The notes beneath the pieces were generated by a model that saw only the letters and a list, made by a program, of their open reading frames with translations, did no database searches and had not been told where the DNA came from. Shown here piece after piece: positions 8,354-47,736 of a DNA stretch of 64,000 nt; the stretch's first letter is position 1, and every line of letters begins with the position of its first letter. A program made the position numbers and the translations under genes. Source of the DNA: Arenicellales bacterium (lineage in GTDB: Bacteria; Pseudomonadota; Gammaproteobacteria; Arenicellales; JAANXG01); NCBI GenBank assembly GCA_965216665.1, contig OZ244194.1, positions 2,232,368-2,296,367 of the forward strand. Direction: 5' to 3'.

Positions 8354-8378
8354 CGCCAGGCCGCGCAAAGGTTGTCCG

Positions 8379-20417: not shown

Positions 20418-21137
20418 ATGGATCGCTACGGTTTTCAGAAACATATTTCGCAACGCTTCAACGAAGAATTGGAGTCGATTCGTACACGAGTTTTGGAAAT
20501 GGGGGGTCTGGTCGAAGCACAGTTGTCCCAAGCAGTGACCGCCATCGTCGAGGGTGATAGCTCATTGGGTGAAGCGGTGATGACCAACGACTACAAGATC
20601 AACGCCCTGGAAGTCGAGATCGACGAGCGTTGCAACCAGTTGCTCGTGCGTCGCCAGCCGGCGGCCAGTGACCTCCGGTTCGTGGTCACGGTGATCAAGA
20701 CCATCACTGATCTGGAGCGCATGGGTGATGAGGCGGAACGCATCGGCCGGATGGCGGTGCAACTGGCACAACGCGAACGTCCGACAAACCAGTACCGCGA
20801 GATCGGACACTTGGGTAATCTCGTCAAACGCATGTTACACGATACGTTGGACGCCTTTGCCCGAACCGACGTCGAGTCCGCGTTGCAGATTCGGCAGTGG
20901 GACCGCGAGATCGACAAAGAATACGAAAGTATCGTGCGGCAGATGGTAACGTTTATGATGGAGGACCCCCGGGAGATTCCGCGCGCTCTCGAGACCATGT
21001 GGTCGGCACGTGCGCTGGAACGAATCGGCGATCGCGCCACTAATATATGCGAATACGTGATCTACCTGGTCCGCGGGCGCGATGTCCGCCATACGAGTTG
21101 GGATAGAGTCCAGGCTGAGCTTAGAGATTCGCGTTAG
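20418..21137 (+). CDS. phoU: phosphate signalling complex protein PhoU
   Basis: Two PhoU repeats (...ITDLERMGDEAERIG... and ...ARALERIGDRATNICE...). Confidence 0.9.
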   Translation: MDRYGFQKHISQRFNEELESIRTRVLEMGGLVEAQLSQAVTAIVEGDSSLGEAVMTNDYKINALEVEIDERCNQLLVRRQPAASDLRFVVTVIKTITDLERMGDEAERIGRMAVQLAQRERPTNQYREIGHLGNLVKRMLHDTLDAFARTDVESALQIRQWDREIDKEYESIVRQMVTFMMEDPREIPRALETMWSARALERIGDRATNICEYVIYLVRGRDVRHTSWDRVQAELRDSR

Positions 21138-22391
21138 CTACATGAAAATGCCCTTGAACACGTAGAAAAACAAGACCGCAAGTAGGCCCCCCGCTGGAAG
21201 AGTCACGATCCACGACATAAAGATATTTCGCACCACGGTGAGATTCAGGGCACCGATACCGCGTGCAATACCGACGCCTAGTACGGCGCCCACCAGGGTA
21301 TGCGTTGTGGAGATCGGCAAACCGGTACCGGATGCGAGCACAACTGTTGTCGCCGCCGCCAACGTCGCAGCGAACCCGCGGCTCGGCGTCAACTCAGTGA
21401 TGTTGTTCCCTACCGTGGCTATCACACGACGCCCGTACATCAGCAGGCCCAGCACGATTCCGGCGCCGCCGATGAGCAGAATCCACGGTGCCAGCAAGGC
21501 CTTTTGACCAAGCTGTCCACCGCTCTTGACCACGCTTACCACCGCGGCAAGCGGCCCCACCGCATTGGCCACGTCATTCGACCCGTGGGCGAACGCCATA
21601 GCACAGGCGGTAACGACCATGAGTACGGCAAAGACTTTTTCCACATTGGCGAAGTGAAACTGTTTGTTCGACGCCGGATCGATTTCTATTTTTTGAATTC
21701 GCCAATACCCGATAGCCATGATCGCCGCGCCGACTGCCACGGAGATAGCCAGGCTCTCGAACGCCGAAAACCCCAGCCCAACGTGTTTCAGACCCTTGAG
21801 CAACGTCACCAGCGCAATAATAAAACCGACCAGGAAGATATATATCGGGACGTACTTTTTGGCGTTTCTGAATGGTTCTTCCGTCCCCAGAATCAGTCTT
21901 TGTACGCTGCCGAACAACACAAAAGCCAGCGTGCCCGCCAGTAACGGCGACACTACCCAACTACTCACTATCGAACCGATTTTCTCCCATCGAACCGCTT
22001 CCATTCCGATTCCGGCCACGGCAAACCCGACGATGGCGCCGACGATGGAGTGGGTGGTCGACACAGGCCAACCGTATGTCGACGCCACCAGCAACCATAT
22101 TCCGGCCGCCAGCAATGACGCGAGCATCCCGAATATCAGATACTCCGGCGTACCGCTCAATACGCCGACATCGATAATCCCCTTCCTGATGGTGGCAGTC
22201 ACCTCACCACCGGCGAGAAACGCGCCCAAGAACTCAAACACGGCAGCGATGACAATCGCTTGCTTTATCGTCAGCGCGGTAGAGCCGACAGAGGTAGCCA
22301 TGGCGTTCGCCACGTCGTTTGCCCCAATTCCCCACGCCATGAACAAACCGAACACCGCGGCAAGGATGAGATAGACCGTGCCGTGATCCAT
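21138..22391 (-). CDS. pit: inorganic phosphate transporter, PiT family
   Basis: MDHGTVYLILAAVFGLFMAWGIGANDVANAM and a second GSNDVANAVGP repeat. Start set at ATG 22391, just downstream of the DUF47 gene. Confidence 0.9.
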   Translation of the reverse strand: MDHGTVYLILAAVFGLFMAWGIGANDVANAMATSVGSTALTIKQAIVIAAVFEFLGAFLAGGEVTATIRKGIIDVGVLSGTPEYLIFGMLASLLAAGIWLLVASTYGWPVSTTHSIVGAIVGFAVAGIGMEAVRWEKIGSIVSSWVVSPLLAGTLAFVLFGSVQRLILGTEEPFRNAKKYVPIYIFLVGFIIALVTLLKGLKHVGLGFSAFESLAISVAVGAAIMAIGYWRIQKIEIDPASNKQFHFANVEKVFAVLMVVTACAMAFAHGSNDVANAVGPLAAVVSVVKSGGQLGQKALLAPWILLIGGAGIVLGLLMYGRRVIATVGNNITELTPSRGFAATLAAATTVVLASGTGLPISTTHTLVGAVLGVGIARGIGALNLTVVRNIFMSWIVTLPAGGLLAVLFFYVFKGIFM

Positions 22392-22402
22392 GGCTAACTC
22401 GG

Positions 22403-23083
22403 CTATCGCGCCAACAGATATTCGAGCCGGCTGCCCACCCGCTGTGCCAAATCCGCGATCTCCCCCACCCACTCAATGACTTGGTAGAGAAATATGACCC
22501 TGACCGGAGACAGCGTTTCCTCTACCTCGAACAGTCGCGCACGCAACGTCACCTGCTTATCGTCCGTTTCCTTCTCGATCTTGTCCAATTCCTTGATCAT
22601 GGACTGCACTAAATCGACCTCCGCACCGCGAAACCCTGTTTCTATCAACTCGTCAAGCTCGTTGATGGCAATTTGCGCCTGCTCGGTCGCGTCGGCGGAA
22701 CGCCGCACGAAATACAGCAGATCCTTCTTCAAGGTCTCCGGGAATTCCATGCGTCGTCCCAGCATTAATCCAGCGATATCTTTGGCCTTATTCGCGACGA
22801 GATCCTGAATACGCAACATCTCCAACAGATCCACTCTGGATACCGGCATGAAAATGCCCCTGGGCAGGTGCAGCCGGATGGCTTTCTTGAGCTCATCGGC
22901 CTCGTTTTCGAGCGCCCCAATACGACTCTGGATGGATTCCGCCGCCTCCCAGTCCTGGCGGCATACCGCCTCAAAGAATTCCACCAGTTGTCGCGTGCAC
23001 TCGCTCACCTTTCCCATGTGCTGTTGCATGGGTTCCACCGGGGAACTTCCGAATATGCGCGCGAGGTAACTTTTTCGAGCCAT
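22403..23083 (-). CDS. DUF47/TIGR00153 family Pit-accessory (PhoU-like) protein
   Basis: MARKSYLARIFGSSPVEPMQQHMGKV... is the typical N-terminus. It lies immediately upstream of pit. Confidence 0.8.
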   Translation of the reverse strand: MARKSYLARIFGSSPVEPMQQHMGKVSECTRQLVEFFEAVCRQDWEAAESIQSRIGALENEADELKKAIRLHLPRGIFMPVSRVDLLEMLRIQDLVANKAKDIAGLMLGRRMEFPETLKKDLLYFVRRSADATEQAQIAINELDELIETGFRGAEVDLVQSMIKELDKIEKETDDKQVTLRARLFEVEETLSPVRVIFLYQVIEWVGEIADLAQRVGSRLEYLLAR

Positions 23084-23262
23084 GACTGAACCAGGGCCGG
23101 CAGACGTGTTGGCGGAGCGTCCATGATACCAGGGAGGCGTAGAGTGCAAAAAATTTGTCACATCGGGGAAATATCCTGTGTGTGGCTACCCCGCAGCCCA
23201 AACGCCGCCAACGGACTCGGGAAGCCCCCGGGACCCGCGAGGAAAGCGGCACCAATACGAAC

Positions 23263-29257: not shown

Positions 29258-32131
29258 TTATTGACAAGCCTCACACTCCGGATCATCGATCGCGCAGGCA
29301 GCCGGCGTTCCGGCGGCACCGGGTTCCGACTGCACGCGGTTCAGTTTCCCATCGGCAATAGTGCTTTTCTCGGAATGCGTCGCACCCATCGTTCTCAGGT
29401 AATACGTTGTTTTCAGGCCCCGCTTCCAGGCCAGCTTGTACAGCGCGTCCAATTTCGGTCCCGAGGGTTCGGCCATGTACAGGTTGAGGCTCTGCGCTTG
29501 ATCGATCCATTTCTGCCGCCGCGACGCCGACTCCACCAACCATTTCGGGTCGATTTCGAACGCACACTTGTATATCGCTTTCAAATCATCCGGGATGCGA
29601 TCGATGGATTGCACCGATCCGTCGAAGTACTTGAGATCATGGGCCATGACTTCGTCCCACAGACCTCGCTCCTTGAGGTCCTGGACGAGATATGGGTTGA
29701 CCACCGTGAATTCGCCGGAGAGATTCGATTTCACATACAGGTTCTGGTACGTCGGTTCGATGGACTGACTGACGCCGGTAATGTTGGCGATGGTGGCCGT
29801 CGGTGCAATCGCCATCGTATTCGAGTTGCGCATACCGGTCGCCTTGACCCGCTCGCGCAGCGCATCCCAGTCCAGCATCTGGTTGATATCCTGCTCCAGA
29901 TACTCGGCACCGCGCTCGCGCTCTACGATGCGGATGGAGTCGATCGGCAAAATGCCCCGACTCCATAGCGACCCGTCAAAGCTCGAATACACCCCGCGCT
30001 CTTGAGCGAGCTCGGTCGAAGCCTGGATCGCGTAATAACTGATGTACTCCATAGTCGTATCGGCAAACTGCACTGCCGCCTCCGACTCATACGGCGTCTT
30101 CAGCATATACAACGCGTCCTGAAACCCCATCAGCCCCATACCCACCGGTCGGTGTCGAAGATTGGAACGTCGGGCCTGGGGTACGCTGTAGTAGTTGATA
30201 TCGATCACGTTGTCGAGCATCCGGATCGCCGTGCGGACGGTGGCGGCGAGCTTTTCGGTATCCAATCGATCACCGACGATGTGTGCCGGGAGGTTGATGG
30301 AGCCCAGATTGCACACTGCGATCTCTTTGTCCGATGTATTCAGAGTGATTTCCGTGCACAAGTTGGAACTGTGCACGACGCCTGCGTGCTGCTGCGGGTT
30401 GCGCAGATTGCAGACATCCTTGAACGTCATCCATGGATGGCCGGTTTCGAACAGCAGCGACAGCATCTTGCGCCATAACTGTACGGCCGGCATGCGCTTG
30501 TAGTTTCGGATTTCGCCGCGGTCGGCGCGCGCCTCGAACTCGGTGTACGCCTTCGCAAACGCCTCGCCGGACAGGTCGTGAAGCGCGCCGACTTCGTCGG
30601 GCGAGAACAGGGTCCAATCCTGGCCCGCGGCCACCCGTTTCATGAACAGATCCGGAATCCAGTTGGCGGTGTTCATGTCGTGGGTGCGTCGCCGATCGTC
30701 GCCCGTGTTCTTACGCAGTTCGAGGTATTCTTCGATATCGAGATGCCACGTTTCCAGATAAGAACAAACAGCGCCCTTACGCTTGCCGCCTTGATTTACC
30801 GCCACCGCGGTATCGTTCACAACTTTGAGAAACGGCACCACGCCCTGCGACTTGCCGTTGGTCCCCTTGATGTGCGCACCCATGGCGCGCACCCGTGTCC
30901 AGTCGTTACCGAGTCCACCGGCGAACTTCGACAACAGAGCGTTGTCTCTGATCGCGCTGTATATGCCATCGAGATCATCCGGTACCGAGGTCAGATAACA
31001 AGACGACAGCTGCGGGCGCAGTGTACCTGCGTTGAACAGGGTTGGCGTACTGCTCATGAAATCGAATTTCGACAGCACGTTGTAGAATTCGATGGCGCGC
31101 TCTTCGCGATTGATCTCCTGTAGGCTCAAACCCATGGCGACGCGCATGAAAAACGCCTGCGGCAGCTCGAAACGCGTACCATGGCTGTGTATGAAGTATC
31201 GGTCGTACAGAGTCTGCAGACCGAGGTAGGTGAATTTGAGATCCCGATCGGGCGCCAACGCACTGCCCAACTGATCGAGATCGAACTCCAACAATTTCGG
31301 ATCGAGAAGCTCGAGTTCGACACCATGCGCGACGAAGTTCCTGAAATACTCGGCGTAGAGCCCGGCCATCTCCGCTTGGGTCGCGGTCTGGGTGTGAAAA
31401 TCGATGAACTGCAATGCTTCGTGCCGCGCCTGGTCGAGTAACAGGCGCGCGGCGACGTAGGTGTAGTTGGGCTCCGCCTCGATCAGCGCGCGGGCGGACA
31501 GGATCAGAGCCTGCGCCAGTTCGTGTTCGGTGATCCCATTGTAGACGTTGCGCAGCGTATCCTGGATGATGCGCGCGGCGTCGACGTCATCCGTCCCTTC
31601 GCAAGCCTCGGTGATCAAACGTTCCAAACGTCGAACGTCGAGGGTGGTGGATGTGCCGTTCTTGCGCGACACCTGAATCTCGAGTTCGCCGCCGCCGCTT
31701 TCTTGCGTGGCGCTCTTCGCCGCACGCGCCTGCGCCCGCTGCTCGCGATATAGGACGTAAGTTCGCGCGACCTTCTGCTCGCCGGCGCGCATCAGCGCCA
31801 GCTCCACGTGGTCCTGGATGTCCTCGATGTGAACCGTGCCCCCGCCCGGCAGATTGCGCGTCACCGCCCGCATCACGTCTTCGGTCAAACGACTGACGAG
31901 CTCGTGCACACGCGCACTGGCAGCCGCCGTGCCCCCCTCCACGGCCAAGAACGCCTTGGTCATCGCGACCGCAATTTTGCTGGCGTCGAAAGGCGTGACT
32001 TTCCCGTTGCGCCGGATGACGCGCATGTCGCCCGGCCGGTTGGCACTCAGATCGACCGCGGCCGGCACAGGCGTCGGCCGCGGGCCGTTCTCCGGCGCCT
32101 GATCCTCCCGAATGAATGGTGTGTTCTGCAT
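29258..32131 (-). CDS. nrdA: class Ia ribonucleotide reductase alpha subunit
   Basis: ATP-cone (VIRRNGKVTPFDASKI). Catalytic ...SNLCTEI... and a C-terminal CxxC tail (DDPECEACQ). I chose ATG 32131 with a GGAGGAG SD; the ORF opens at 32167. Confidence 0.9.
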   Translation of the reverse strand: MQNTPFIREDQAPENGPRPTPVPAAVDLSANRPGDMRVIRRNGKVTPFDASKIAVAMTKAFLAVEGGTAAASARVHELVSRLTEDVMRAVTRNLPGGGTVHIEDIQDHVELALMRAGEQKVARTYVLYREQRAQARAAKSATQESGGGELEIQVSRKNGTSTTLDVRRLERLITEACEGTDDVDAARIIQDTLRNVYNGITEHELAQALILSARALIEAEPNYTYVAARLLLDQARHEALQFIDFHTQTATQAEMAGLYAEYFRNFVAHGVELELLDPKLLEFDLDQLGSALAPDRDLKFTYLGLQTLYDRYFIHSHGTRFELPQAFFMRVAMGLSLQEINREERAIEFYNVLSKFDFMSSTPTLFNAGTLRPQLSSCYLTSVPDDLDGIYSAIRDNALLSKFAGGLGNDWTRVRAMGAHIKGTNGKSQGVVPFLKVVNDTAVAVNQGGKRKGAVCSYLETWHLDIEEYLELRKNTGDDRRRTHDMNTANWIPDLFMKRVAAGQDWTLFSPDEVGALHDLSGEAFAKAYTEFEARADRGEIRNYKRMPAVQLWRKMLSLLFETGHPWMTFKDVCNLRNPQQHAGVVHSSNLCTEITLNTSDKEIAVCNLGSINLPAHIVGDRLDTEKLAATVRTAIRMLDNVIDINYYSVPQARRSNLRHRPVGMGLMGFQDALYMLKTPYESEAAVQFADTTMEYISYYAIQASTELAQERGVYSSFDGSLWSRGILPIDSIRIVERERGAEYLEQDINQMLDWDALRERVKATGMRNSNTMAIAPTATIANITGVSQSIEPTYQNLYVKSNLSGEFTVVNPYLVQDLKERGLWDEVMAHDLKYFDGSVQSIDRIPDDLKAIYKCAFEIDPKWLVESASRRQKWIDQAQSLNLYMAEPSGPKLDALYKLAWKRGLKTTYYLRTMGATHSEKSTIADGKLNRVQSEPGAAGTPAACAIDDPECEACQ

Positions 32132-32255
32132 CGCTCCTCCCGCTGTGAGTCTCGCAGCGCGACGCATCCTGCCCGTGAACCCCTCGCTCCCCTGAGTGCG
32201 CCCTTCTTAAGACTTGACGACTGCCATACCACTGCTGCGGCCCGGATTCCGCAAA

Positions 32256-32303: not shown

Positions 32304-32382
32304 TTTGGGCGAAATCGCAATAGCGAACGGCGGAAAATGACGAGCCCGGCGACAGACGGGCGCGCGGGCGTGTACGCTGCGC

Positions 32383-33480
32383 CTAGCGGCGTTCCGTCAG
32401 TGCCCAGAATCGGGCGATGTGGTAGGCGGCGCAGATACCGGCGGCAAGTACGTAGTCGGTCGCGCGGCCGCACTGATCCGGCTGCGGATCGACCCCGGCT
32501 GGGGCCGGATTGATCGGGACACCGTGGTCCATGCCGTCCAGTAAGAACCATTCGACCACCGGTCGCCCGTGCGCGTCGTGGTACTCGCGACGGAGGTGAC
32601 CGGCGATCGATTGTTCGTGATCGGCGCGCGCGTCGGTACCGTGCACACCGGTCCACTGATCGACGAGCTCGGCCGCGTTCCGCGCGCCGACGGTTCGGTC
32701 GGCGGTCCCGTGCCAGATCGACACGCGCGGCCAGCGCGGCGGGCGCGGCGCGCCGGACTCCCACACGCGTTCTCGCCAGACGTGCGGCGCGTGGTCGAAC
32801 CCGGGCTCCATACAGGCGAAGGGATCGGTAAAGCCCAACCACAGCGCGGCATAGGACACGGACGCCAGGGGAACGTAGTCGGGAACCCGCGAACACCGAT
32901 AGGGAATCCCGGCGACAATGGCGCCCCCGGCAAACGTCTCCGGGTACGCTGCCAGCATCACGGCGGTCATCGCGCCGCCGGCGGACAGTCCCGTGATGAA
33001 CACGCGTTCCGGGTCCAGCGACCACTCGCGGATCGCCGTGTCGGTCATCTGTTTGATCGACAACGCCTCGCCGTGGTCACGCACTTGGTCGCCGCGGTAG
33101 AACCAATTGAAGCAACCGAGCGGGTTGTTGCCCCACCAAGGGTGGGTCTTCTGTTCCGGAAACACGAGTGCAAACCCAAAGCGGTTCGCCACTTCAACCC
33201 AGCCGGTCTCGTCGTCGTAGGCGGCCGCCGACTGTCGACAACCGTGTAACGCGACCACCAGCGCGGCGCCGGTCGCAAGACCCGCAGGCCGATATCCCCA
33301 CATCCGCAAGTTGCCCGGATTGCTGCCGAACTCCTCGATTTCGACGCGCTGGGCGGTCGCTACGTCGCTACTCCCCAGACCCGCGACCAGCGCCACTGCC
33401 GGCAGTCCGCCGACGACACGGCGGCCCAGACGCGAGAACCGGCTACCAGGCCCGGAACGGGTGCTGCGCGAGGTACGCAT
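32383..33480 (-). CDS. secreted PHB-depolymerase-family esterase (LpqC-like)
   Basis: RR-containing signal peptide. FGSNPGNLRMWGYRP; nucleophile elbow GLSAGGAM; ...WHGTADRTV.... Confidence 0.8.
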   Translation of the reverse strand: MRTSRSTRSGPGSRFSRLGRRVVGGLPAVALVAGLGSSDVATAQRVEIEEFGSNPGNLRMWGYRPAGLATGAALVVALHGCRQSAAAYDDETGWVEVANRFGFALVFPEQKTHPWWGNNPLGCFNWFYRGDQVRDHGEALSIKQMTDTAIREWSLDPERVFITGLSAGGAMTAVMLAAYPETFAGGAIVAGIPYRCSRVPDYVPLASVSYAALWLGFTDPFACMEPGFDHAPHVWRERVWESGAPRPPRWPRVSIWHGTADRTVGARNAAELVDQWTGVHGTDARADHEQSIAGHLRREYHDAHGRPVVEWFLLDGMDHGVPINPAPAGVDPQPDQCGRATDYVLAAGICAAYHIARFWALTERR

Positions 33481-33910
33481 TCAGATACCGGACATCTCCG
33501 GATACCTCTTCGCCGAGCCATTCCGGGCGTTCGAACGGCTGGTTCTCGCTTTCCAGCTCCAGCTCCGCGACCACCAGACCGGTATTGTCGCCGCCGAACT
33601 CATCCACTTCCCAGGTATGGCCCCGATACTCGATGAAATGTCGCCGTTTGACGAGTTGCCGGCCGGCGCAGAGCTCGCGGAATATCTGTTCCGCGTCCGT
33701 CATCGGAATGTCGTAGTCGAACTCCACCCGGCGCAGAGCGGTGCTGGCCTGCTTGATGTTCAGGGTCGCGCGACCCGCCTGCAGACGCACCCGCACGGCG
33801 CACTGATCATTGATCGCCAGATAACCCTGACGGTAGTCGGCGGTGCGTGTCGCCTGGGTACGCCACGCATCACCGACAACCAGGAATTTTCGCTCGATTT
33901 CTTCAGCCAT
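33443..33910 (-). CDS. stand-alone CYTH domain protein (triphosphate tunnel metalloenzyme)
   Basis: MAEEIERKFLV (ExExK signature) and ...LVVAELELESE.... ATG 33910 overlaps the ParA-like stop by 8 nt. Confidence 0.85.
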   Translation of the reverse strand: MAEEIERKFLVVGDAWRTQATRTADYRQGYLAINDQCAVRVRLQAGRATLNIKQASTALRRVEFDYDIPMTDAEQIFRELCAGRQLVKRRHFIEYRGHTWEVDEFGGDNTGLVVAELELESENQPFERPEWLGEEVSGDVRYLNAYLAQHPFRAW

Positions 33911-34673
33911 GATCCTCTCCGGAGCTTGCCGGATACAGGGCTTGCCGGATCTCCGACCACAACAGGCGAAACGCGTGCGCGGCGGCGCCACGCGGGGCAA
34001 ACACGTCGACCGCGGCGCGCTGCGGGCCCATGCGCTCCACGTCCGCGGCGTACGGAACGAAACTGCGTAATACGCCGTCGGTGCGCTGCGGCAGGGTTTC
34101 CATTATTTCGCGATGCAATCGCTTGCGGCGATCTACCATGGAGAAAAACGGCAATACACGCAGATCCGCGTCGCGCGAACCGTACAGAAATTCGCGTAAC
34201 TGCCGCAAGGTACGCAGCGACAACGTCGTCGGAATGGTGGGGACCAACAGAGCGTCCGCGGCGCGAAACACGTTTTCCGAGACCAGCGAAATACTCGGTG
34301 CACAGTCCAAAAACACGTAGTCGTACTCGTCCTTGAGGGGCTTTAAGAGACTGCGCATATGTTTCTTGCGTTTCGTCTGGTCGTCGAGCACCAAATCCAG
34401 GTTGCGATGAGAAAAATCCGCGGGAACCAAATCGAGATTCGGATAGTCGGTGGCCTTGATGCGCCGCCTCAAGCCGTGCTTGTGCTCCAGCAGGCCCTCG
34501 CTCCCGCCTTTGAGTTTGGGTTTGATACGAAAGTAATAGGAGGCAGCGCCCTGCGGATCGAGATCCCAAACCAACGTGCGGGTACCCCCGAGCGCACTCA
34601 GATAGGCCAGATTCACCGCCGCCGCGGTCTTGCCGACACCGCCCTTGATGTTGTAAATCGCGAGTACTTTCAT
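33903..34673 (-). CDS. orphan ParA/MinD-family ATPase (deviant Walker A)
   Basis: MKVLAIYNIKGGVGKTAAAVNLAYL, ...YVFLDCAPS.... No ParB-like gene is adjacent. Confidence 0.85.
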   Translation of the reverse strand: MKVLAIYNIKGGVGKTAAAVNLAYLSALGGTRTLVWDLDPQGAASYYFRIKPKLKGGSEGLLEHKHGLRRRIKATDYPNLDLVPADFSHRNLDLVLDDQTKRKKHMRSLLKPLKDEYDYVFLDCAPSISLVSENVFRAADALLVPTIPTTLSLRTLRQLREFLYGSRDADLRVLPFFSMVDRRKRLHREIMETLPQRTDGVLRSFVPYAADVERMGPQRAAVDVFAPRGAAAHAFRLLWSEIRQALYPASSGEDHG

Positions 34674-36214
34674 GTCTTGAACAGTTTCTTGAACGCACCG
34701 TGATGAGCGGTGAAACCGGCGAACCGGTCCGCGAACTCGGCGCGCGTAGCGTGCTGCGCGGTGCGCAGGCGTTCGACCAGTTGGCCGATTTCCATCAGCA
34801 CCTCCACGTCGTTACCGTTCTGGGCCGCCAGTGCACGGCCGATGCGACGCAGGTTTTGCTGCTGTACGCTCTGGTCCTGAAACGTGCCGAGATAGTCTTG
34901 CAGGCGGCGCAGATCCTTGATGCGTCGCGCCATGCGGCGCTTAGGATACAGGTTTTGGTAGGCTTCCATAACGTATCGCAGCTTCTTGCACGTCTTGCGC
35001 AGATCGTGCAGCGCCTCGTCGCCAGACGTCGCGTTTACCGACCGCCCGTCACGCAGCACGCGGCGATACAGCCGGTAGATGCGCCGGCTCGCAAACTCTC
35101 GCGCCGGCGCTTCCGCCTGCGCGCCTTTACCGTCTGTCGCCGCGTCGAGGAACGTCGACCACCGGTGCATCAGGTTGCGGTACCGGGTGCCGGCCAGCGC
35201 CCGCTTCAGATCCGCTCGTGCGGTGTCCCGTTGACGGCGTAAATAACGGACCAACGGCGCCAAGCGCTGGTCCTGCGTCGCGGCAAATTCGAGACACTGG
35301 ACGTCCAGATCCCGTGCATCGCTGGTTTCACCGGCCAACCAACGGAACTCGTCGCGAAACGGTTGCAGCGCGTCGTCGGCGAACAACCCGGCCGACTGCG
35401 CCAGCAGGGCGCGCGTACGCCGGATCGCCACGCGAAAATCGTGCAGATACTCCGGGTCCGCACCGGCCACGGTTCCGGCTTCGTTCCACTGCATCACACG
35501 CGCCAAGTGTCTCAGCACCGCGACCGTCGCCTGTTGGGCGGTCTGACCGGTGTCCAGCGGCACCTCCAATTTCGGCGAGTAGTCCCCGGGAGCGCGGTCC
35601 GCCTTCGCCAGCGCCGCACCCAGCATATCCAGCTCGCTTTCCTCGGCACCGCTCGCCTGCAGCACCGCGGCGACCCGCGCGGTAGCGCGCGGATAACCGC
35701 GTAACGGGGTGAGCACCACGCGCGTTTCGAGCGCGCCGCGCCGGCGTCTACCGATCCAAACTTGCGGCGCTCCCTTTTCGAGCCGGGCGAGGGTTTTGCC
35801 CTGGTCGTCCAGCACCGACACCGAAATAATCGGGCCGCGCAGTTCGCATACTGCACACAACTCACGCGGTTCGATGAGCGCCGCCAGCCGGCGACCCAAG
35901 GGCTCCGGCAACGACGCGGCATCGCTCGGCGCGGCGTCCACCGCAAGCGACAGGTGCGCGCCGCTGCGCGTATCGAGCCAGACCAACCGTCGTCCGCCTC
36001 GGCGCCCGTAACGTTCGCCGGTGAGGAGGTGACCGGCGCGAAACAGGCGCCAGTCGAAGGTGTCGTAAAAGGTACGGACGATGGAACGCGGCGCATTAAC
36101 GTCGACGCGAAAAACGCCACGCAGCGTGGTCAGGCACCGCTCCCAGGTGGCGTCATCTGGAAGCCGAAGCTCGCGTGCGCGGTAATTCCCGAGCACTCCC
36201 CGTATGCCCCCCAT
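34670..36214 (-). CDS. CYTH-like (degenerate) / CHAD domain protein
   Basis: CHAD repeats LHDFRVAIRRTRALL and LHDLRKTCKKLRYVMEAY. The N-terminal ~200 aa are CYTH-like, but ExExK is replaced by RELRL. I set the start at ATG 36214 (TGATG overlap with the MFS stop). Confidence 0.8.
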   Translation of the reverse strand: MGGIRGVLGNYRARELRLPDDATWERCLTTLRGVFRVDVNAPRSIVRTFYDTFDWRLFRAGHLLTGERYGRRGGRRLVWLDTRSGAHLSLAVDAAPSDAASLPEPLGRRLAALIEPRELCAVCELRGPIISVSVLDDQGKTLARLEKGAPQVWIGRRRRGALETRVVLTPLRGYPRATARVAAVLQASGAEESELDMLGAALAKADRAPGDYSPKLEVPLDTGQTAQQATVAVLRHLARVMQWNEAGTVAGADPEYLHDFRVAIRRTRALLAQSAGLFADDALQPFRDEFRWLAGETSDARDLDVQCLEFAATQDQRLAPLVRYLRRQRDTARADLKRALAGTRYRNLMHRWSTFLDAATDGKGAQAEAPAREFASRRIYRLYRRVLRDGRSVNATSGDEALHDLRKTCKKLRYVMEAYQNLYPKRRMARRIKDLRRLQDYLGTFQDQSVQQQNLRRIGRALAAQNGNDVEVLMEIGQLVERLRTAQHATRAEFADRFAGFTAHHGAFKKLFKT

Positions 36215-37419
36215 CAATCCGCGACGGTGGCGATATCCGCACGGGTCTCGAGTCTTGCGGACGGCAGCCAGGCCGCCATGACGACTGCCGTCAGCGCGAC
36301 ACCAGCGAGCAGTGCGAACACCCAGTAGAATCCGCCGGTGGTTTCGGTGATCTTGGCGACCAATAACACACCCAGCGGCGCAGCGCCGAAGGTCAGTACG
36401 AACTTGACGCCAAACGCGAGTCCGTGCCGCCGGTCCGGCGTATAGCGCGCGAGCAGCATCACCTCGGCCGGCAATGCGCCGACGCTGGCCATTACCATCA
36501 GCGCCGCCACCATCAGCAGCGGTAACCCACTGAAACCCGCCGCCAGCCACAACAGAGGCACCTGCAGCAGTATGGCACCGACATACACCCGTTTGAGGGG
36601 AAATCGATCGGCCAGATACCCACCCCCCATCTGCATGAAAGCAGCAGCGGTGTACACCGCGGCAACCAGCAATCCGACCCCCAGCGTGCCGTCACCCGCC
36701 AGGCCCTCGTGCCTCAGCGCGAAGGTTTTCGGCAGCGCGGTCTGGGTGGTCTGAAAAATCAGCCCACCGCAGAACATGGTAACCAACAGTATCGCGAACA
36801 CCCGCACGAGATCGGCGCGCGAGTGGACCTCCGCAGGCTGTGCGTCGGTGGCGCGGTCGGCAACCCATCCCTTGTGAACGTAGACGAGTAGCGCCGCGCC
36901 GGTGGCCACACAAATCACGCCCGGTACGATAAAGGCCGCGCGCCAGTGAATCAGGTCGATCAGCGCGCCCGCCGTGACCCCCGCGAGAGCGGCGCCCAGC
37001 GTGCCGAAGATACCGTTAACCCCCAGCGCCTTTCCACGCCCGGCGCCGGCGTTGCGCACCAGCCACGGAATCCCCACCGGGTGGTAGATGGCGGCAAATA
37101 CACCCAGGCCGGTGAGCGCCAGCATCAAACTGACGGTGGATTCGGTCAAACCGGCCGCTATCGAACACAGCCCTAATCCGAAGAAGAACACCACCATCAT
37201 GCCCGGTGCACCGAACCGGTCGCTCAGCACACCGGCGGGCAGCGCCGCGACGCCGACCATTAACGCACCCAAGGTCCACAGTTCTATCAACTCGTGGTAC
37301 GGCAACTGCCAGTCGCGCTCCAATGCGAGCACGATGACGAAATAAAACGCCGTACACAGGTGAATGTACAAGTGGCCGAGGCACGAGAATACGACGGTGG
37401 CGGTGGGCAGGCGCGTCAT
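36214..37419 (-). CDS. MFS transporter
   Basis: 401 aa with about 12 TM segments and ...LPAGVLSDRFG... (an MFS loop 2-3-type motif). Confidence 0.85.
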   Translation of the reverse strand: MTRLPTATVVFSCLGHLYIHLCTAFYFVIVLALERDWQLPYHELIELWTLGALMVGVAALPAGVLSDRFGAPGMMVVFFFGLGLCSIAAGLTESTVSLMLALTGLGVFAAIYHPVGIPWLVRNAGAGRGKALGVNGIFGTLGAALAGVTAGALIDLIHWRAAFIVPGVICVATGAALLVYVHKGWVADRATDAQPAEVHSRADLVRVFAILLVTMFCGGLIFQTTQTALPKTFALRHEGLAGDGTLGVGLLVAAVYTAAAFMQMGGGYLADRFPLKRVYVGAILLQVPLLWLAAGFSGLPLLMVAALMVMASVGALPAEVMLLARYTPDRRHGLAFGVKFVLTFGAAPLGVLLVAKITETTGGFYWVFALLAGVALTAVVMAAWLPSARLETRADIATVAD

Positions 37420-37487: not shown

Positions 37488-38537
37488 TCAACGCCAGATA
37501 TCCACGTCCCTACCCTGTTCGCGAATGTGTTCGGCACGCGCCGATATATAGCGCTGGAAACTGGGCTGCTCCCGATAAGCGGCCGACCGCACGTAGTCGA
37601 AAATAGACTGGGTGTGAAAGATCTTGAAAAAGGCCTCGCTGCGGATCACCTCGATACCGTCGTCGAACAAGACAATGGTCGGCGCATATTTCACGTCGAG
37701 CTCGCGCGCCCAGTCCCGCGCGGTGGTGTGCTCACCGGACGGAGTGACGAGCGGTGTTTTCGACCACATGTCGAGCTGCACGCTGTGGAAAGCGGTCACG
37801 ATGGTCCGGGTTTCCGGGTCGGTGAGTACGTATTCGTGAAGACTGTCACAGTTGGGACACTGGGTTTGTTCGAAAAACACCGCCACCGGCCGCCCGTCGG
37901 GCGGGGCCGATAAATCAAACGGCGGCGGCGTGAAGAAATCTTCGCGGTGCAATGCGCCGGCGTCGGCAGCCGGGGCCTGTTTCTCCAGAAACTCCCGGTA
38001 GGTCAGATCCTGCTCCATGCGCCCGGTCACGTAGTCCAAGGCCAACTTGAACCGGGTCGGCGGCAGATAACCGTCAACCCGCAGCGCCACACCGCCCTGC
38101 TCGTTGAAGAACAGCAAGGTCGGTGTGAACTGGACTCTGAGTGCGCGCGCGAACTGCTTCTCGGTGTAGGCCTGCCCGTCGACACTCACCACCTCGCGGT
38201 CCCCCCACATGTTCAAGGCCACGACGTCGAACTTGGCGCGCACTTGCTCTTCGATGTCCTTCTGGGAAAGATTCCGCTCCACCAATGCATTGCAGTACGG
38301 GCACCCGTCCTGATGGAACAGAACCAATACGCGCTTGCCCCGGTCGCCCGCCTCGCGTACGTCTTCGGCGAAATCGAGAAAACTCTCTTTGAACCAGGAG
38401 GGATATTCGGTGGGCTTGGCACCCAGAAACCGGCCGGTTGGGGGCTTAGGGGTGGTTTCGGCGTACGCGACGGCTGCCGGCGCGACAAGCGCCCAGGCGA
38501 ATCCCAGCAACAACAAGATCGAACGTACCGGATGCAT
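37488..38537 (-). CDS. periplasmic double thioredoxin-fold protein (SoxW-like)
   Basis: Signal peptide MHPVRSILLLLGFAWALVAPAAVAYA. Two Trx-like halves with CPYC and CPNC. Confidence 0.7.
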   Translation of the reverse strand: MHPVRSILLLLGFAWALVAPAAVAYAETTPKPPTGRFLGAKPTEYPSWFKESFLDFAEDVREAGDRGKRVLVLFHQDGCPYCNALVERNLSQKDIEEQVRAKFDVVALNMWGDREVVSVDGQAYTEKQFARALRVQFTPTLLFFNEQGGVALRVDGYLPPTRFKLALDYVTGRMEQDLTYREFLEKQAPAADAGALHREDFFTPPPFDLSAPPDGRPVAVFFEQTQCPNCDSLHEYVLTDPETRTIVTAFHSVQLDMWSKTPLVTPSGEHTTARDWARELDVKYAPTIVLFDDGIEVIRSEAFFKIFHTQSIFDYVRSAAYREQPSFQRYISARAEHIREQGRDVDIWR

Positions 38538-38648
38538 CAACACTCCCCCGCCGGTGGCGGCGTGCACACCGGAGTGTAATTCGCAATCTGGGCGCCGACT
38601 ACCCACCATGCGGGATAACCGCACGGCGGGCCGTCTATGGCGAATCGT

Positions 38649-42136: not shown

Positions 42137-42280
42137 TAATCGACTCCTCAAGCCTCCCAGTCACTATGTTACGACGCCATCGGCGTGTCCGCCGCCCTCA
42201 CGATACTCAAAGCCGGTGGGCGACGACAATTCCGCTGCGCCAAAAATTTTCAATCGAGCGATAAGTATCGTTACGCGGGC

Positions 42281-43527: not shown

Positions 43528-45621
43528 GTGTCCACTGCCGAGAATCACGTTGTTTCTGCAGACCTGAATCGCCCGGAATGGTACATCAACCGGGAATTGA
43601 GCCAGTTGGCGTTCAACCGGCGCGTGTTCGAGCAGGCGCAGAGCCCCGAGGTGCCGTTGCTGGAGCGATTGCGGTTCTTGTGCATTACGAGCTCCAACCT
43701 GGACGAATTCTTCGAAGTACGCGTAGCCGGGCTCAAACAGCAGGCCGAGTATGGCGCGGTACAGACGGGGGCCGACGGATTGACGCCACTGGACGCGTTG
43801 CGCCGCATCAGCGACACCGCCCACGAACTCGTGGCCGCTCAGTATGCGCTGTTGAACGACGTGTTGTTGCCGGAGCTGGAGCGGGAAGACATCCGGTTTC
43901 TGCGCCGTGAACAGTGGCGCAGAGCACAACAGGCGTGGTTGGACCGCTATTTCGACGACGAGTTACTGCCGATTCTGACTCCCATTAGACTCGATCCGGC
44001 GCACCCGTTCCCGCGCACGCTCAATAAGAACCTGAACTTCATCGTTACGCTGGAAGGTAAAGACGCATTCGGTAATCGCGACGGCATGGCGATCGTACCG
44101 ATTCCCCGCGCGCTGCCTCGCCTGATACGTATCCCGCCGGAAGAAGCTTCCGGCGCGAACGATTTCGTCTTCCTTTCGTCAGTGATCCACATCCATGTTG
44201 GCGATCTGTTTCCCGGCATGAAAGTCACCGGCTGTTACCAGTTCCGCGTGACGCGCAACAGCGAGTTGTTCGTGGACACCGAAGAAGTCGACGATTTACT
44301 GCGCGCCCTGGAGGGTGAACTGCCGTCGCGGCGCTACGGTGATGCGGTGCGTTTGGAAGTGGCCGACAACTGCCCGGACAGCCTGGCCGGATTTCTGTTG
44401 CGCCGTTTCGAGCTCGCGGTGGAGGACCTGTACCGTGTCAACGGCCCGGTCAATTTGAACCGTCTCATTGCCCTGCCCGATCTCGTCGAGCGGCCGGACC
44501 TGAAATACGCGAGCTTCACTCCCGGTCTGCCGGCCAAGGTGCCTGCCGGCACCAACATGTTCAAAGCCATCGGCAGCGGCGACATCCTCTTGCACCATCC
44601 GTTTCAATCCTTCATGCCGGTAGTGGAGTTCGTCCGCCAGGCGGCAAACGACCCGCATGTGCTGGCGATCAAACAGACCCTGTACCGGACCGGCGTCGAA
44701 TCGGTGTTGGTCCAGGCGTTAATGGACGCGGCGCGAGGCGGTACGGAAGTCACCGTCGTCGTGGAGCTGCGCGCGCGCTTCGACGAAGAGACCAATATCT
44801 CGATCGCCACGCAATTGCAGGAAGCGGGTGTACATGTGGTGTACGGAATTGTGGGGTACAAGACCCATGCCAAGATGCTGATGGTGGTACGCCGCGAGCA
44901 GGGCAAGCTGCGTCGCTACGTGCATCTGGGCACCGGCAACTACCATCAACGTACGTCGCGTTTGTATACCGACTACGGTTACTTCACGTGCGACAAAAAG
45001 ATCTGTGAGGATGTACACGCCATCTTCATGCAACTGACTACGCAGAGCCGAAGCGTCGCGTTGCACAAGCTGCTCGAGTCCCCGTTCACTCTGCAATCCG
45101 GCATCATCGAGCGCATCGAGCGGGAGGCCAAACACGCCCGGAGCAAGCGCCCGGCGCGCATCATCGCGAAAATGAACGGCCTGGTGAGCCCCGGCGTCAT
45201 CCAGGCGCTGTACCACGCCTCCTGCGCCGGAGTAAAGATTGACCTGATCGTGCGCGGCGTATGCTGTTTGCGTCCGGGTGTGAAAGGCGTATCGGAGAAC
45301 ATCACTGTCCGGTCGATCGTCGGACGTTTTCTAGAGCACACGCGCGTCTACTACTTCGAGAACGACGGTGACCCGCAAGTTTTCTGCGCCAGCGCAGATT
45401 GGATGCCGCGAAACCTGGTCCAGCGCGTGGAGCAATGTTTTCCCATCACGAGCAAGCGCCTGAAGCGGCGCATCATCGCCGATTTGGAGTTGTATCTCCG
45501 GGACAACACGCAATCCTGGCAGATGGGGTCGGACGGTCAGTATCGACGGATCGAGACTGTGGAAAACGAACCTCGGATTTCGGCACAGCAGTCGCTGCTC
45601 GAGGACCTGGCTGGCGCTTGA
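43528..45621 (+). CDS. ppk1: polyphosphate kinase 1
   Basis: 697 aa. N-terminal ...YINRELSQLAFNRRVFEQA... and two PLD-like HKD-type regions (...YKTHAKMLMV..., ...RFLEHTRVYYF...). GTG start. Confidence 0.9.
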   Translation: MSTAENHVVSADLNRPEWYINRELSQLAFNRRVFEQAQSPEVPLLERLRFLCITSSNLDEFFEVRVAGLKQQAEYGAVQTGADGLTPLDALRRISDTAHELVAAQYALLNDVLLPELEREDIRFLRREQWRRAQQAWLDRYFDDELLPILTPIRLDPAHPFPRTLNKNLNFIVTLEGKDAFGNRDGMAIVPIPRALPRLIRIPPEEASGANDFVFLSSVIHIHVGDLFPGMKVTGCYQFRVTRNSELFVDTEEVDDLLRALEGELPSRRYGDAVRLEVADNCPDSLAGFLLRRFELAVEDLYRVNGPVNLNRLIALPDLVERPDLKYASFTPGLPAKVPAGTNMFKAIGSGDILLHHPFQSFMPVVEFVRQAANDPHVLAIKQTLYRTGVESVLVQALMDAARGGTEVTVVVELRARFDEETNISIATQLQEAGVHVVYGIVGYKTHAKMLMVVRREQGKLRRYVHLGTGNYHQRTSRLYTDYGYFTCDKKICEDVHAIFMQLTTQSRSVALHKLLESPFTLQSGIIERIEREAKHARSKRPARIIAKMNGLVSPGVIQALYHASCAGVKIDLIVRGVCCLRPGVKGVSENITVRSIVGRFLEHTRVYYFENDGDPQVFCASADWMPRNLVQRVEQCFPITSKRLKRRIIADLELYLRDNTQSWQMGSDGQYRRIETVENEPRISAQQSLLEDLAGA

Positions 45622-45659: not shown

Positions 45660-46211
45660 GTGGGTCGACTCATCTACGTGATCGGCGCGTCCGGCGTGGG
45701 GAAAGACACCGTGCTTCGCCATGTTCGGCGTCGGACGCTGCCCGACAGTCCGTGGGTCGTCGCCCACCGGTACATTACCCGTGCGCCGGACGCGGGCCCC
45801 GAAAACCACATTACCCTCAGCGAATCGGAGTTCGAGCAGCGCCGGACAGCGGGCCTGTTCGCGCTGCACTGGGACAGCCACGGCTACCGCTACGGAATCG
45901 GTATCGAGATCGAGGCGTGGCTGGCGCGTGGCCTTGATGTGCTGGTGAATGGTTCGCGCGGTTATTTGTTTGCGGCGCAAAAACGCTTCCCGGAACTGCT
46001 ACCGGTGAAAATTACGGTTTCCGATTCGGTACTCAGAACACGACTGGCGCGCCGCGGCCGGGAATCCGGCACCGAAATCGACGCGCGCCTGGTGCGCGCC
46101 GACCGATTGGACGCGGTACGCTGCCCGAATCTTTACGAAATCAATAACGATGGGCGCGTGGAAATCGCCGGCGACGCGTTGCTCGCGTTATGCGGGGCTA
46201 ACGATAGCTGA
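45660..46211 (+). CDS. phnN: ribose 1,5-bisphosphate phosphokinase PhnN
   Basis: RLIYVIGASGVGKDTVL...VAHRYITR....ENHI.LSE.EF...VLVNGSR... is colinear with E. coli PhnN. The start is uncertain (GTG 45660 or TTG 45618, which overlaps the ppk1 stop). Confidence 0.85.
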   Translation: MGRLIYVIGASGVGKDTVLRHVRRRTLPDSPWVVAHRYITRAPDAGPENHITLSESEFEQRRTAGLFALHWDSHGYRYGIGIEIEAWLARGLDVLVNGSRGYLFAAQKRFPELLPVKITVSDSVLRTRLARRGRESGTEIDARLVRADRLDAVRCPNLYEINNDGRVEIAGDALLALCGANDS

Positions 46212-47736
46212 GCTCGAATCCAGCCGCGCGCAGAAACTTCGCTTCTCCTTCCAGATCGGCCACCGTCAGCGGGTGGGAGTCCAGCCACTCGGATGGGAAT
46301 TTCACCGTGAGCGCGTTACCCTCGGTATTCAAGCGTAGCTGCGGCGGAGCGGATTCGCTGCGCCCACGGTGCAGGAGCACCGCCAATCGCAACAACACGC
46401 ACAAACGTTTACTCGATTCCACCAGCCGGCGCGGTAAACCCTCAAACTCGGTGCTCGGGAACTTGCGCCGGTGTCCGCGTATCAGTGCCGCCAGCGCTCC
46501 TTGTTCGCTGCGCGAAAACCCCGCCATATCGGCATTCGCCACCACGTAGGCGCCGTGTTTATGGTACTGACCGTGGGCAACGGACAGCCCGATCTCGTGC
46601 AGCTCCGCGGCCCAAGCCAGCCGATCGGCGTAAACGCCACCGGCCAGTTCCCAGGACTCTGCCACTTGTGCCAGCAATCCGGCCGCGGTGGTCTTGATCC
46701 GACCCGCGTGCACCGAATCCACGGTCCAGCGCCGGGCCAGTGTTTCCACGGTGTGCGTGCGCACGTCAGTATGACGAATGCGTCCAATCAGGTCATACAG
46801 CAAACCTTCGCGCATCGCCTGGTCGGACACATACAAGCGGTCGATATCCAGCAGTTCGAACAAGGCGCTCAATATCGCTACGCCTCCCGGCAGAATCGGC
46901 CGGCGGTCGGGGCTCACGCCCATTTCTTCGAGGCCGTCGACATGCCCAGCTTCGATCAACGCGTCGCGCAGTTTGGCGAGCGCCGAACGCGTGATACCGT
47001 GTTTGCACCATCCGCGCGCCTGCACGACGCTGCGCACGGCGCGTACCGTACCGGAACAACCGATCGCCCGCTCCCAACCGGTGCCCCGAAACAGCGCCAT
47101 TACCGGTTGCGTGGCCAGCTCCGCGTCGATTTCCGCCGCGCAAAACTTTTTCTTTCTGATACGCCCGTCCGCGAAATGCCTGTTACTCAAGGTTACGCAG
47201 CCCACATGCAGGCTTTCCCGGTGGGTCGTGGCAAATCCGGTGCCGGCGATGACCTCGGTGCTGCCGCCGCCGATGTCTATAACTAACCGCCGCTCATCTC
47301 CCGCCGCCAGACCGTGTGCGACGCCGAGATAAATCAAGCGCGCTTCCTCGCGCCCGCCGATCACCTCGATCGGGTGGCCCAAGGCATCTTCGGCTTCGGC
47401 CACGAACGCCGAGGAGTTGCGCGCCAGACGCAGCGTGTTGGTGCCCGCGGCGCGGACGTTCCCCTGCTGAATGCCGCGCAGCCGTTGACCAAACCGTTGT
47501 AGACACTCCAGTGCTCTGTCCATCGCCTCGCGCGTCAGACACTTGTCGTCGTCGATGCCCGACGCCAGACGTACCGTTTCCCGCAGGCGATCGATAATCG
47601 ACAGTTGACCATGGTCGAGCCTAGCAACGATGAGATGAAAGCTGTTGGACCCGAGATCGATGGCGGCAACGGTCTCGTCACCATCGGCCCCGGCATCGAC
47701 GTTCGGCGGTCGCGTCGTATTTGCGGCTTGGGCCAT
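46198..47736 (-). CDS. ppx: exopolyphosphatase (Ppx/GppA family)
   Basis: AAIDLGSNSFHLIVAR...DIGGGSTE..., 512 aa. Confidence 0.9.
   Translation of the reverse strand: MAQAANTTRPPNVDAGADGDETVAAIDLGSNSFHLIVARLDHGQLSIIDRLRETVRLASGIDDDKCLTREAMDRALECLQRFGQRLRGIQQGNVRAAGTNTLRLARNSSAFVAEAEDALGHPIEVIGGREEARLIYLGVAHGLAAGDERRLVIDIGGGSTEVIAGTGFATTHRESLHVGCVTLSNRHFADGRIRKKKFCAAEIDAELATQPVMALFRGTGWERAIGCSGTVRAVRSVVQARGWCKHGITRSALAKLRDALIEAGHVDGLEEMGVSPDRRPILPGGVAILSALFELLDIDRLYVSDQAMREGLLYDLIGRIRHTDVRTHTVETLARRWTVDSVHAGRIKTTAAGLLAQVAESWELAGGVYADRLAWAAELHEIGLSVAHGQYHKHGAYVVANADMAGFSRSEQGALAALIRGHRRKFPSTEFEGLPRRLVESSKRLCVLLRLAVLLHRGRSESAPPQLRLNTEGNALTVKFPSEWLDSHPLTVADLEGEAKFLRAAGFELSYR

Follow-up and report, generated by a model that had tools for sequence, protein, structure and literature searches.

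The present study examined a chain of five minus-strand genes, and in particular a coupled pair within it that encodes a protein with a CHAD domain and a ParA-like ATPase, in a 64,000-nucleotide stretch of an Arenicellales bacterium genome (GenBank assembly GCA_965216665.1, contig OZ244194.1, forward-strand positions 2,232,368 to 2,296,367), hereafter the window. Read from position 37419 down to 32383, the chain comprises genes for a major facilitator superfamily (MFS) transporter, a CYTH-like/CHAD protein, a ParA-like ATPase, a stand-alone CYTH enzyme of the triphosphate-tunnel (TTM) type, and an esterase, with a terminator-like hairpin beyond the last of them:

36214..37419, minus strand: MFS transporter, first gene of the chain (MFS_1, 130 bits; no specific NCBIfam cut-off reached)
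34670..36214, minus strand: CYTH-like/CHAD protein of 514 residues, the proposed granule adaptor (Pfam CHAD 194.5 bits, residues 233-455)
33903..34673, minus strand: ParA/MinD-family ATPase of 256 residues, the proposed positioning ATPase (AAA_31 and CbiA)
33443..33910, minus strand: stand-alone CYTH/TTM enzyme of 155 residues with an intact ExExK motif (Pfam CYTH 58 bits)
32383..33480, minus strand: signal-peptide-bearing esterase, which closes the chain (286 bits with NF050058, whose cut-off is 150, and 187 bits with TIGR01840)
32344..32361, minus strand: terminator-like hairpin 22 nucleotides past the esterase stop (GCCCGTCTGTCGCCGGGC with a T-rich tail, found by consensus scan only)

An earlier note on this DNA had described the five genes as joined by overlapping stop and start codons, and every junction that it claimed is present in the sequence; the motifs that it quoted (NIKGGVGKT, EIERKF, AELELESE, and GLSAGG) all occur in the translations, and its domain calls (MFS, CHAD, ParA-like, CYTH, esterase) were upheld by Pfam and NCBIfam. 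On the minus strand the MFS stop and CHAD start share TGATG (36216-36212), the CHAD stop and ParA-like start share ATGA (34673-34670), the ParA-like stop and CYTH start share ATGGCTGA (33910-33903), and the CYTH stop TAG (33445-33443) lies inside the esterase open reading frame (ORF), which gives a 38-nucleotide overlap provided that esterase translation begins at the ATG at 33480; the same 38-nucleotide overlap occurs in an 81%-identical relative (locus L165). The hairpin at 32344..32361 plausibly marks the 3' end of the transcription unit. No sigma-70 promoter consensus was found between 32.0 and 38.8 kb, and the Pho box CTGTCATNNNNCTGTCAT, allowing up to three mismatches, gave two matches against 3.1 expected, none of them upstream of the operon. 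A thioredoxin-like gene lies 68 nucleotides upstream on the same strand and may share the operon transcript. A role in a defence system was considered and set aside, PADLOC having returned no meaningful match for any of the five proteins.

Homologous loci were gathered by exact look-ups, a scan in which each species was represented by one genome, and a metagenome scan, and profiles of the five window proteins were then run against them. The genome scan, which used the generic pattern KGGVGKT, yielded at least 19 loci of the window ATPase's clade together with at least 61 loci of ordinary ParA (about 30% identity) that served as controls, and the metagenome scan, which used the clade motif [PSA]F[FY][SA]MVDxR[KR], contributed 80 more clade loci. 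A clade locus was treated as evaluable when at least 300 nucleotides were available upstream of the ATPase gene (n = 79). Homologues of the ATPase number in the thousands, the best 120 being all 58-81% identical and mostly of about 247 residues, and at E <= 1e-30 they form 446 clusters at 50% identity.

The conserved core of the chain is the translationally coupled pair in which the CYTH-like/CHAD gene is followed by the gene for the ParA-like ATPase. In 64 of the 79 evaluable clade loci, and in none of the 61 controls (Fisher p ~1e-25), the gene immediately upstream of the ATPase gene and in the same orientation is a CHAD gene of this two-domain subfamily, a pairing far beyond chance; in two further loci (L114 and L117) the CHAD gene is directly downstream instead. 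Clustering at 70% identity divides the 64 CHAD-linked ATPases into 26 groups, some pairs being as little as 35% identical, and the named carriers from the genome scan belong to the Actinomycetota, the Thermodesulfobacteriota, and the Alpha- and Gammaproteobacteria. The earlier note had made its interpretation depend on adjacency beyond close relatives, and at these identities the adjacency does extend that far. The CHAD stop and ATPase start overlap by four nucleotides in 41 of 63 loci, and nearly all of the others have the two within 30 nucleotides of each other. When the comparison was run the other way, from four CHAD proteins on long contigs that are 32-39% identical to that of the window, all four genes were found to be followed by the ATPase gene amid otherwise unrelated neighbours, and the same order of CHAD gene and then ATPase gene occurs in Endoriftia and Sedimenticola.

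A ParB gene adjoins the ATPase gene, on its downstream side, at 55 of the 61 control loci and at none of the 102 clade loci, and gidB lies upstream in 14 of the 61 controls, whereas the clade ATPase was not found beside gidB. A ParB profile built from the 55 control loci had no match anywhere in the window, a broader result than the earlier observation that no ParB gene stands beside the ATPase. In a neighbour-joining tree, the smallest clade that contains all CHAD-linked sequences has 88 members and includes no control, and the identity of the clade to ordinary ParA does not exceed 37%. With its own clade and no ParB partner, the ATPase is set apart from the ParB-linked ParA/Soj proteins, as the interpretation in the earlier note requires. 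The further supposition that it has no Min, flagellar, chemotaxis, or carboxysome neighbours agrees with the genes annotated at 16.5-49.5 kb of the window, none of which is of these kinds, and Min genes are absent from the annotated neighbours of the ATPase.

Fusions point to the same partners. Among the best 150 representative clusters of ATPase homologues, 13 have sequences of at least 500 residues, and these include seven fusions of ATPase and CYTH and one of CHAD and ATPase. A stand-alone CYTH gene adjoins the ATPase gene in six clade loci and on a plasmid of Paracoccus aestuarii, where the order CHAD-ATPase-CYTH-NUDIX matches that of the window. The stand-alone CYTH protein of the window matches PF01928 at 58.1 bits (cut-off 23.2), carries EIERK at residues 4-8, and has as its closest solved structure Nitrosomonas NE1496 (3typ/2fbl, E 4e-14), which we take to be a characterised inorganic triphosphatase. 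Adjoining the ATPase in only some lineages and fused to it in others, the CYTH enzyme is an accessory partner of the pair. Several further ATPase clusters (P0175, P0195, P0219, and P0266, of 521-537 residues, and P0124, P0145, P0159, P0191, P0207, P0162, and P0128, of 342-443 residues) have C-terminal extensions of about 100-290 residues without a Pfam match, which may or may not be divergent tunnel domains. A long ORF at L163, with about 890 in-frame codons upstream of the ATPase, was rejected as a fusion; it has no Pfam domain and was taken as GC-rich read-through. NUDIX hydrolase genes recur a few kb from the module in genomes as unrelated as those of Paracoccus, two further carriers, and Pontibacter (L168:7253-7651, L173:8171-8641, L175:491-1006, and L170:3606-4301).

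The ATPase belongs to the ParA/MinD family with the deviant Walker A motif. Across 46 clade members there is no variation at K10, G11, G12, V13, G14, or K15 of K10GGVGK15T, nor at D37, D39, and D123 of the Walker A' and Walker B motifs. The AlphaFold model (mean predicted local distance difference test score, pLDDT, of 93.1) superposes on Soj, ParA, McdA, and MinD at template modelling (TM) scores of 0.75-0.89, the closest folds being Soj/ParA (0.88, 28% identity), followed by McdA (0.82) and then by MinD, FlhG, and BcsQ (about 0.75). The best sequence match in the PDB is the chromosomal ParA of M. xanthus. No NCBIfam subfamily cut-off was reached: ParA_partition NF041546 scored 72.7 bits against 180, RepA TIGR03453 72.8 against 348, SopA 56.6 against 725, MinD TIGR01968 37.4 against 212.9, and BcsQ 54 against 158. 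The clade has its own motifs, PFFSMVDRRKxLH and IPTTLSLRT, and within the first of these FFSMVDRRK (MVDRRK) aligns with M(Y/F)D(G/S)R of Soj/ParA, a motif that presumably holds the DNA-contacting arginine (R189 of B. subtilis Soj). In the model no C-terminal membrane helix of the MinD type is present past residue 246; the chain ends in an acidic tail that was predicted with low confidence.

Two known systems stand close to it. In both sequence and structure the ATPase is matched best by the chromosomal ParA/Soj proteins of ParABS (8ray, 1wcv/2bek, and 6iub; TM 0.84-0.89, 21-29% identity), with which it shares the deviant Walker A motif, the aspartates of Walker A' and B, and the Soj-type arginine; the clade nevertheless differs from them in the absence of ParB and gidB described above, in its own motifs, and in scoring under the NCBIfam partition cut-off. 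McdA/McdB likewise consists of a small ParA-type ATPase without ParB, encoded beside a cargo-specific adaptor for a cytoplasmic body other than DNA; the folds agree at the TM score given above, and the nucleoid-based ratchet proposed here is that of McdAB. The cargo there is a protein shell, whereas here an inorganic polymer granule is proposed, and McdB is a largely disordered, condensate-forming protein, whereas the adaptor here would be a folded CYTH-like/CHAD protein of about 515 residues, modelled at a pLDDT of 94. The window ATPase also keeps the classical signature lysine and is only 18-19% identical to the McdA structures. In place of a McdB-type partner there is the CHAD protein, and the genes that recur beside the clade include none for carboxysomes.

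The CHAD protein was modelled with high confidence (pLDDT 93.7, predicted TM score 0.90), and its CHAD domain scored 194.5 bits against a PF05235 cut-off of 25.6. In Foldseek searches the C-terminal half matched the polyphosphate (polyP)-bound CHAD protein of Chlorobium tepidum (6qva) at TM 0.88, the entire chain aligned with full-length E. coli YgiF (5a60, E 1.4e-12), and the N-terminal 210 residues matched many TTM structures at target-normalised TM scores of 0.5-0.67. The label "CYTH-like/CHAD" that had been given to this protein was therefore right, the N-terminal domain having the triphosphate-tunnel (CYTH/TTM) fold. Pfam CYTH gave no match in that domain at E <= 0.01, and its ExExK motif is missing: strand beta-1 reads ELRLP in the window protein and x-E/Q-F/Y-L/I-L/I-P in 41 homologues. 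Elsewhere in the tunnel domain D51, D54, R117, and K140 are invariant and R56 is nearly so, and in the CHAD domain H258, R261, R265, R268, R301, H403, R406, K410, and R413 are invariant in the family. A C-terminal tail, [RK]F[RK]xLF, is conserved throughout the family, and the N-terminal extension is almost nil.

Among known CHAD proteins and phosins (R. eutropha PptA and PptB, E. coli YgiF, and C. tepidum CHAD), the conserved His/Arg/Lys set is shared with the window protein, and YgiF has the same two-domain layout of TTM and CHAD. The window subfamily differs in the loss of ExExK from its tunnel domain and in its own [RK]F[RK]xLF tail, and its gene is obligately paired with the ATPase gene, a pairing that we did not find described for PptA, PptB, or YgiF. 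CHAD domains bind polyP (PMC6537752), and CHAD proteins were reported on granules (Tumlirsch and Jendrossek 2017, as cited in PMC13081873); by extension from these other CHAD proteins, the subfamily studied here would bind polyP and localise to granules.

Genes of phosphate metabolism accompany the clade. Clustering of the neighbouring ORFs and annotation of the representatives identified PPK1, PPK2, PstS-like binding proteins, Pst permease, and PhoU as recurrent neighbours, along with a small helix-hairpin-helix (HhH) protein, CNNM/CorC transporters, and a histidine phosphatase. One or more of ppk1, ppk2, pstS, pstCA, and phoU were present at 22 of the 102 clade loci and at one of the 61 controls (p 3e-4), and in Methylophaga ppk1 lies directly upstream of the ATPase gene and ends six nucleotides before it. 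Several of these loci probably represent one lineage, because the pst, phoU, and HhH genes largely co-occur in the same loci. The small protein, of the HHH_5 type, is encoded at 14 clade loci and no control (L125:3786-4334, plus strand, and L097, L104, L107, L127, L133, L136, L140, L143, L152, L155, L156, L157, and L159), downstream of the ATPase gene and on the same strand in the 11 for which its position was recorded, and often together with pstS, pstCA, phoU, and a gene for a CNNM/CorC transporter. Because the HhH motif binds DNA non-specifically, the protein could provide an extra link to the nucleoid in its lineage. In the window itself ppk1, ppx, pit, and phoU had been placed near the chain, and all four were found, about 6-12 kb away:

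43528..45621, plus strand: ppk1 (polyphosphate kinase 1), 6.1 kb from the chain, with all four PPK1 Pfam domains
46198..47736, minus strand: ppx (exopolyphosphatase), with Ppx-GppA and domain III
20418..21137, plus strand: phoU (Pfam)
21138..22472, minus strand: pit/PHO4 (Pfam)
22403..23161, minus strand: PhoU_div/DUF47 gene (Pfam)

An ORF at 25115-27274 was considered as ppk1 and rejected; it encodes a second ribonucleotide reductase, and ppk1 lies on the other side of the chain.

It seems somewhat probable that the pair constitutes a ParA-type positioning system with the polyP granule as its cargo and the CHAD protein as its adaptor. By analogy with McdAB for carboxysomes and ParABS for DNA, the polyP granule would be coated by the CHAD domain, ATP-bound sandwich dimers of the ATPase are predicted to bind the nucleoid non-specifically, and the granule-bound CHAD protein, on meeting these dimers, would bring about ATP hydrolysis and their release, with either the conserved basic-hydrophobic C-terminal tail or the degenerate tunnel domain of the CHAD protein possibly serving as the stimulating element. 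Local depletion of the ATPase would then lead granules to climb the gradient and move apart on the nucleoid, such that they would be evenly spaced and inherited by both daughters. The stronger proposition, that a widespread and dedicated two-component system of this type, sometimes joined by a catalytic CYTH enzyme, actively spaces and segregates polyP granules on the nucleoid, is to our minds evenly balanced. The conserved position of the ATPase gene next to that of the putative adaptor, their overlaps, and the fusions speak for the positioning class, and the deduction of cargo from gene neighbourhood is an accepted approach in the field (PMC10241942). The linkage, fusions, folds, ATPase motifs, and phosphate-gene context are observed, and from them we infer the positioning function itself. 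The earlier note had proposed an orphan ATPase dedicated to granules with a CHAD adaptor; its comparative side (adjacency, a separate clade, no ParB) was borne out, and its functional side is carried here as a conditional proposal. Such a system would be of a known kind, ParA/MinD positioning, but both its cargo and its adaptor would be new; for it the comparative evidence is strong and the function is argued by analogy.

Several observations weigh against this proposal. An adjoining CHAD gene is absent from 15 of the 79 evaluable clade loci, among them loci of the Acidobacteria Mor1, Bacteroidota, Steroidobacteraceae, Sphingomonas, and a soil group, and from plasmid-borne members of the clade in Marinobacter and Pontibacter; the copy on plasmid pMAQU02 of Marinobacter nauticus VT8 (L167 6001-6747) stands beside genes for phbB, pyruvate kinase, and a family-1 glycosyltransferase. 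In cluster P0152 (561 residues) the ATPase is fused to sucrose-6-phosphate phosphatase. Either the CHAD linkage disappeared several times or some members of the clade work with other partners, and the CHAD-less plasmid copies and this fusion are the reason to think that the clade may serve more than one partner, with a sub-branch of different partnership. The stem of the clade in the neighbour-joining tree, which was made with no bootstrap, is short (0.019). The CHAD partner does not have the disordered basic N-terminal peptide that stimulates most ParA/MinD ATPases, and fusion to a catalytic CYTH domain fits an enzymatic or regulatory role equally well. In S. elongatus, which is reported to lack a dedicated ParA, polyP granules are nevertheless ordered, and their organisation is reported to be independent of McdA, the only ParA-family ATPase there (PMC13081873), for which reason a system of the kind proposed cannot be universal.

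The main rival, and a serious one although we think it doubtful, is that the ATPase acts as an ATP-dependent switch on polyP metabolism or granule biogenesis and not on position, for example by gating the CYTH/TTM hydrolase or a PPK on the granule according to ATP level, or by nucleating or limiting granule formation. FlhG, MipZ, and BcsQ regulate the assembly of their targets, and FlhG and BcsQ are clear structural relatives of the window ATPase. The seven clusters of ParA and CYTH fusions, the translational coupling of a catalytic NeuTTM-like CYTH enzyme in the window, the position of ppk1 directly upstream of the ATPase in Methylophaga, and the want of a typical N-terminal stimulatory peptide on the CHAD partner would all suit such a switch. 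However, the best matches in fold and sequence are to the nucleoid-binding Soj/ParA and McdA, not to the regulators, and the Soj-type arginine is retained; moreover, the universal CHAD partner has lost ExExK from its tunnel domain, and therefore there is no obvious, always-present enzyme to regulate. Regulation and positioning are also compatible with each other.

Another possibility is that all five genes serve one pathway, in which uptake by the MFS transporter and processing by the esterase would be coupled to polyP or polyhydroxybutyrate storage. The unbroken run of overlapping codons favours it, as does the order thioredoxin-MFS-CHAD-ATPase-CYTH-esterase-ribonucleotide reductase, which is whole in the 81%-identical relatives (L165 and L166). 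The MFS gene, however, adjoins the others only in the window and L165, with no homologue of this MFS in the first 84 loci; the esterase was found only in the window, L165, and L166, and neither protein has a homologue in the other roughly 100 clade loci. Because they accompany the pair only in these relatives, the MFS transporter and the esterase are passengers of the local operon, and the view of the five-gene operon as a module, held in the earlier note, does not stand; its interpretation was right at the core and over-extended at the edges. The esterase, furthermore, passes NF050058, the catalytic-domain model of extracellular type-1 short-chain polyhydroxyalkanoate depolymerases, and with this depolymerase type and its signal-like N-terminus it probably acts outside the cytoplasm. 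Genes for alpha/beta-hydrolases, esterases, or lipases do lie near several clade loci, those without CHAD included (window 32383-33480 and 48683-49534; L005:8741-9913; L012:7769-8521; L022:3289-4290; L175:1-467 and 7480-8460), and might be read in favour of a single pathway, but the hydrolase family, like the MFS family, is very common and their presence may be due to chance. A single pathway is on these grounds quite unlikely.

We consider it very unlikely that the ATPase is instead a MinD-like tether that anchors granules at the membrane or a polar landmark, for example by phosphate transporters, and not on the nucleoid. The recurrence of pstS, pstCA, phoU, and CNNM/CorC-type transporter genes nearby, the MFS gene at the head of the window operon, and a mention of polar granule migration in Agrobacterium (PMC11894788) are in keeping with a tether, but no extra amphipathic helix follows the last helix of the fold, the tail being acidic and of low confidence, the score against the MinD model is far under its cut-off (37 bits against 213), Soj and McdA are closer structural matches than MinD and FlhG, and the pst, phoU, and HhH neighbours belong largely to the same loci and probably to one lineage. 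That the ATPase is an ordinary partition ParA of a chromosome, chromid, or plasmid, standing beside a CHAD gene by chance, is barely credible and already disfavoured: a few clade members reside on plasmids or chromids (Paracoccus, Halomonas, Marinobacter, and Pontibacter), the best PDB sequence match is a chromosomal ParA, and the Acidithiobacillus literature calls the ATPase a partition protein, but the contrasts with the controls in ParB and CHAD linkage, the subthreshold ParA_partition score, and the low identity to ordinary ParA all oppose it, and the Paracoccus plasmid gene sits inside a CHAD-ParA-CYTH-NUDIX set and not in a partition locus.

How bacteria place and inherit polyP granules is a long-standing question, and the CHAD-ATPase pair offers genes with which to test it, being the first concrete, testable candidate for machinery that spaces granules and hands them down. 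Henry and Crosson 2013 (PMC3806658) listed partitioning "similar to ParA-family proteins" as one untested model of granule inheritance, with no candidate named, and a 2026 preprint described the molecular basis of the spatial organisation of polyP as still unclear (PMC13081873). In P. aeruginosa, where the common problem is even granule spacing along the nucleoid, AlgP contributes to that spacing and explains part of it only (PMC9239181); AlgP is a histone-H1-like DNA-binding protein without an ATPase, whereas the module proposed here would be active, ATP-driven, and unrelated in sequence. PolyP is not mentioned as a cargo in a 2024 review of ParA/MinD cargos or in the H. neapolitanus survey, both of which endorse the analysis of gene neighbourhoods for identifying cargos, and we found no paper proposing a ParA dedicated to granules, although Iyer and Aravind 2002, in which CYTH and CHAD were defined, might mention a ParA-like neighbour. 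If the proposal is true, no positioning machine would have been known before this pair for a storage body made of an inorganic polymer, and the pair would answer the 2013 ParA-like partitioning model (PMC3806658); the list of ParA/MinD cargos would gain an inorganic polymer condensate, a large CHAD subfamily would gain a function, and engineered phosphate removal could be affected. Pair-carrying lineages include the Desulfobulbaceae and Microthrixaceae, which we take to have conspicuous polyP granules, and the cultured carriers are Paracoccus, Sedimenticola, Rhodothalassium, and, according to the literature, Acidithiobacillus.

For the last of these, a folD-ppk-parA-CYTH/CHAD cluster was drawn as conserved within the genus, with parA labelled a plasmid or chromosome partition gene and CYTH/CHAD an adenylate cyclase or copper-related protein (PMC6416229, PMC10892726). 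To judge by the genes in the cluster, this is apparently the same association, ppk1 included; it differs in being a one-genus neighbourhood for which no role in granule positioning was proposed (PMC6416229, PMC10892726). The suggestion that the arrangement was undescribed is accordingly only partly right, the gene cluster having been drawn in these papers. Just upstream of the CHAD gene lies folD in Endoriftia (L001:5301-6158) or pepN in Sedimenticola (L003:3573-6212), and folD and pepN flank the Acidithiobacillus cluster too (PMC10892726), a sign, it seems, that gene order around the module is old in these proteobacteria.

Immediately downstream of the operon in the window are two genes for the large subunit of ribonucleotide reductase, one with its small-subunit partner, and a gene for dCTP deaminase; the position of nrdAB is common to the 81%-identical relatives. 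The block occupies the following minus-strand intervals:

23263-24399, minus strand: ribonucleotide reductase/dCTP deaminase block
25115-27274, minus strand: same block
27874-29070, minus strand: same block
29258-32167, minus strand: same block

On its other side the operon is flanked by a double thioredoxin-like gene (37488-38624, minus strand) and an ATP sulfurylase gene (40949-42151, minus strand), both of which are also present in L165. Among named organisms, those with the most similar ATPase, Sedimenticola and Endoriftia, are sulfur oxidisers, which suggests that the host is a sulfur-oxidising gammaproteobacterium. Farther out, the most GC-rich part of the window holds a 1519-residue ORF (51458-56017, minus strand).

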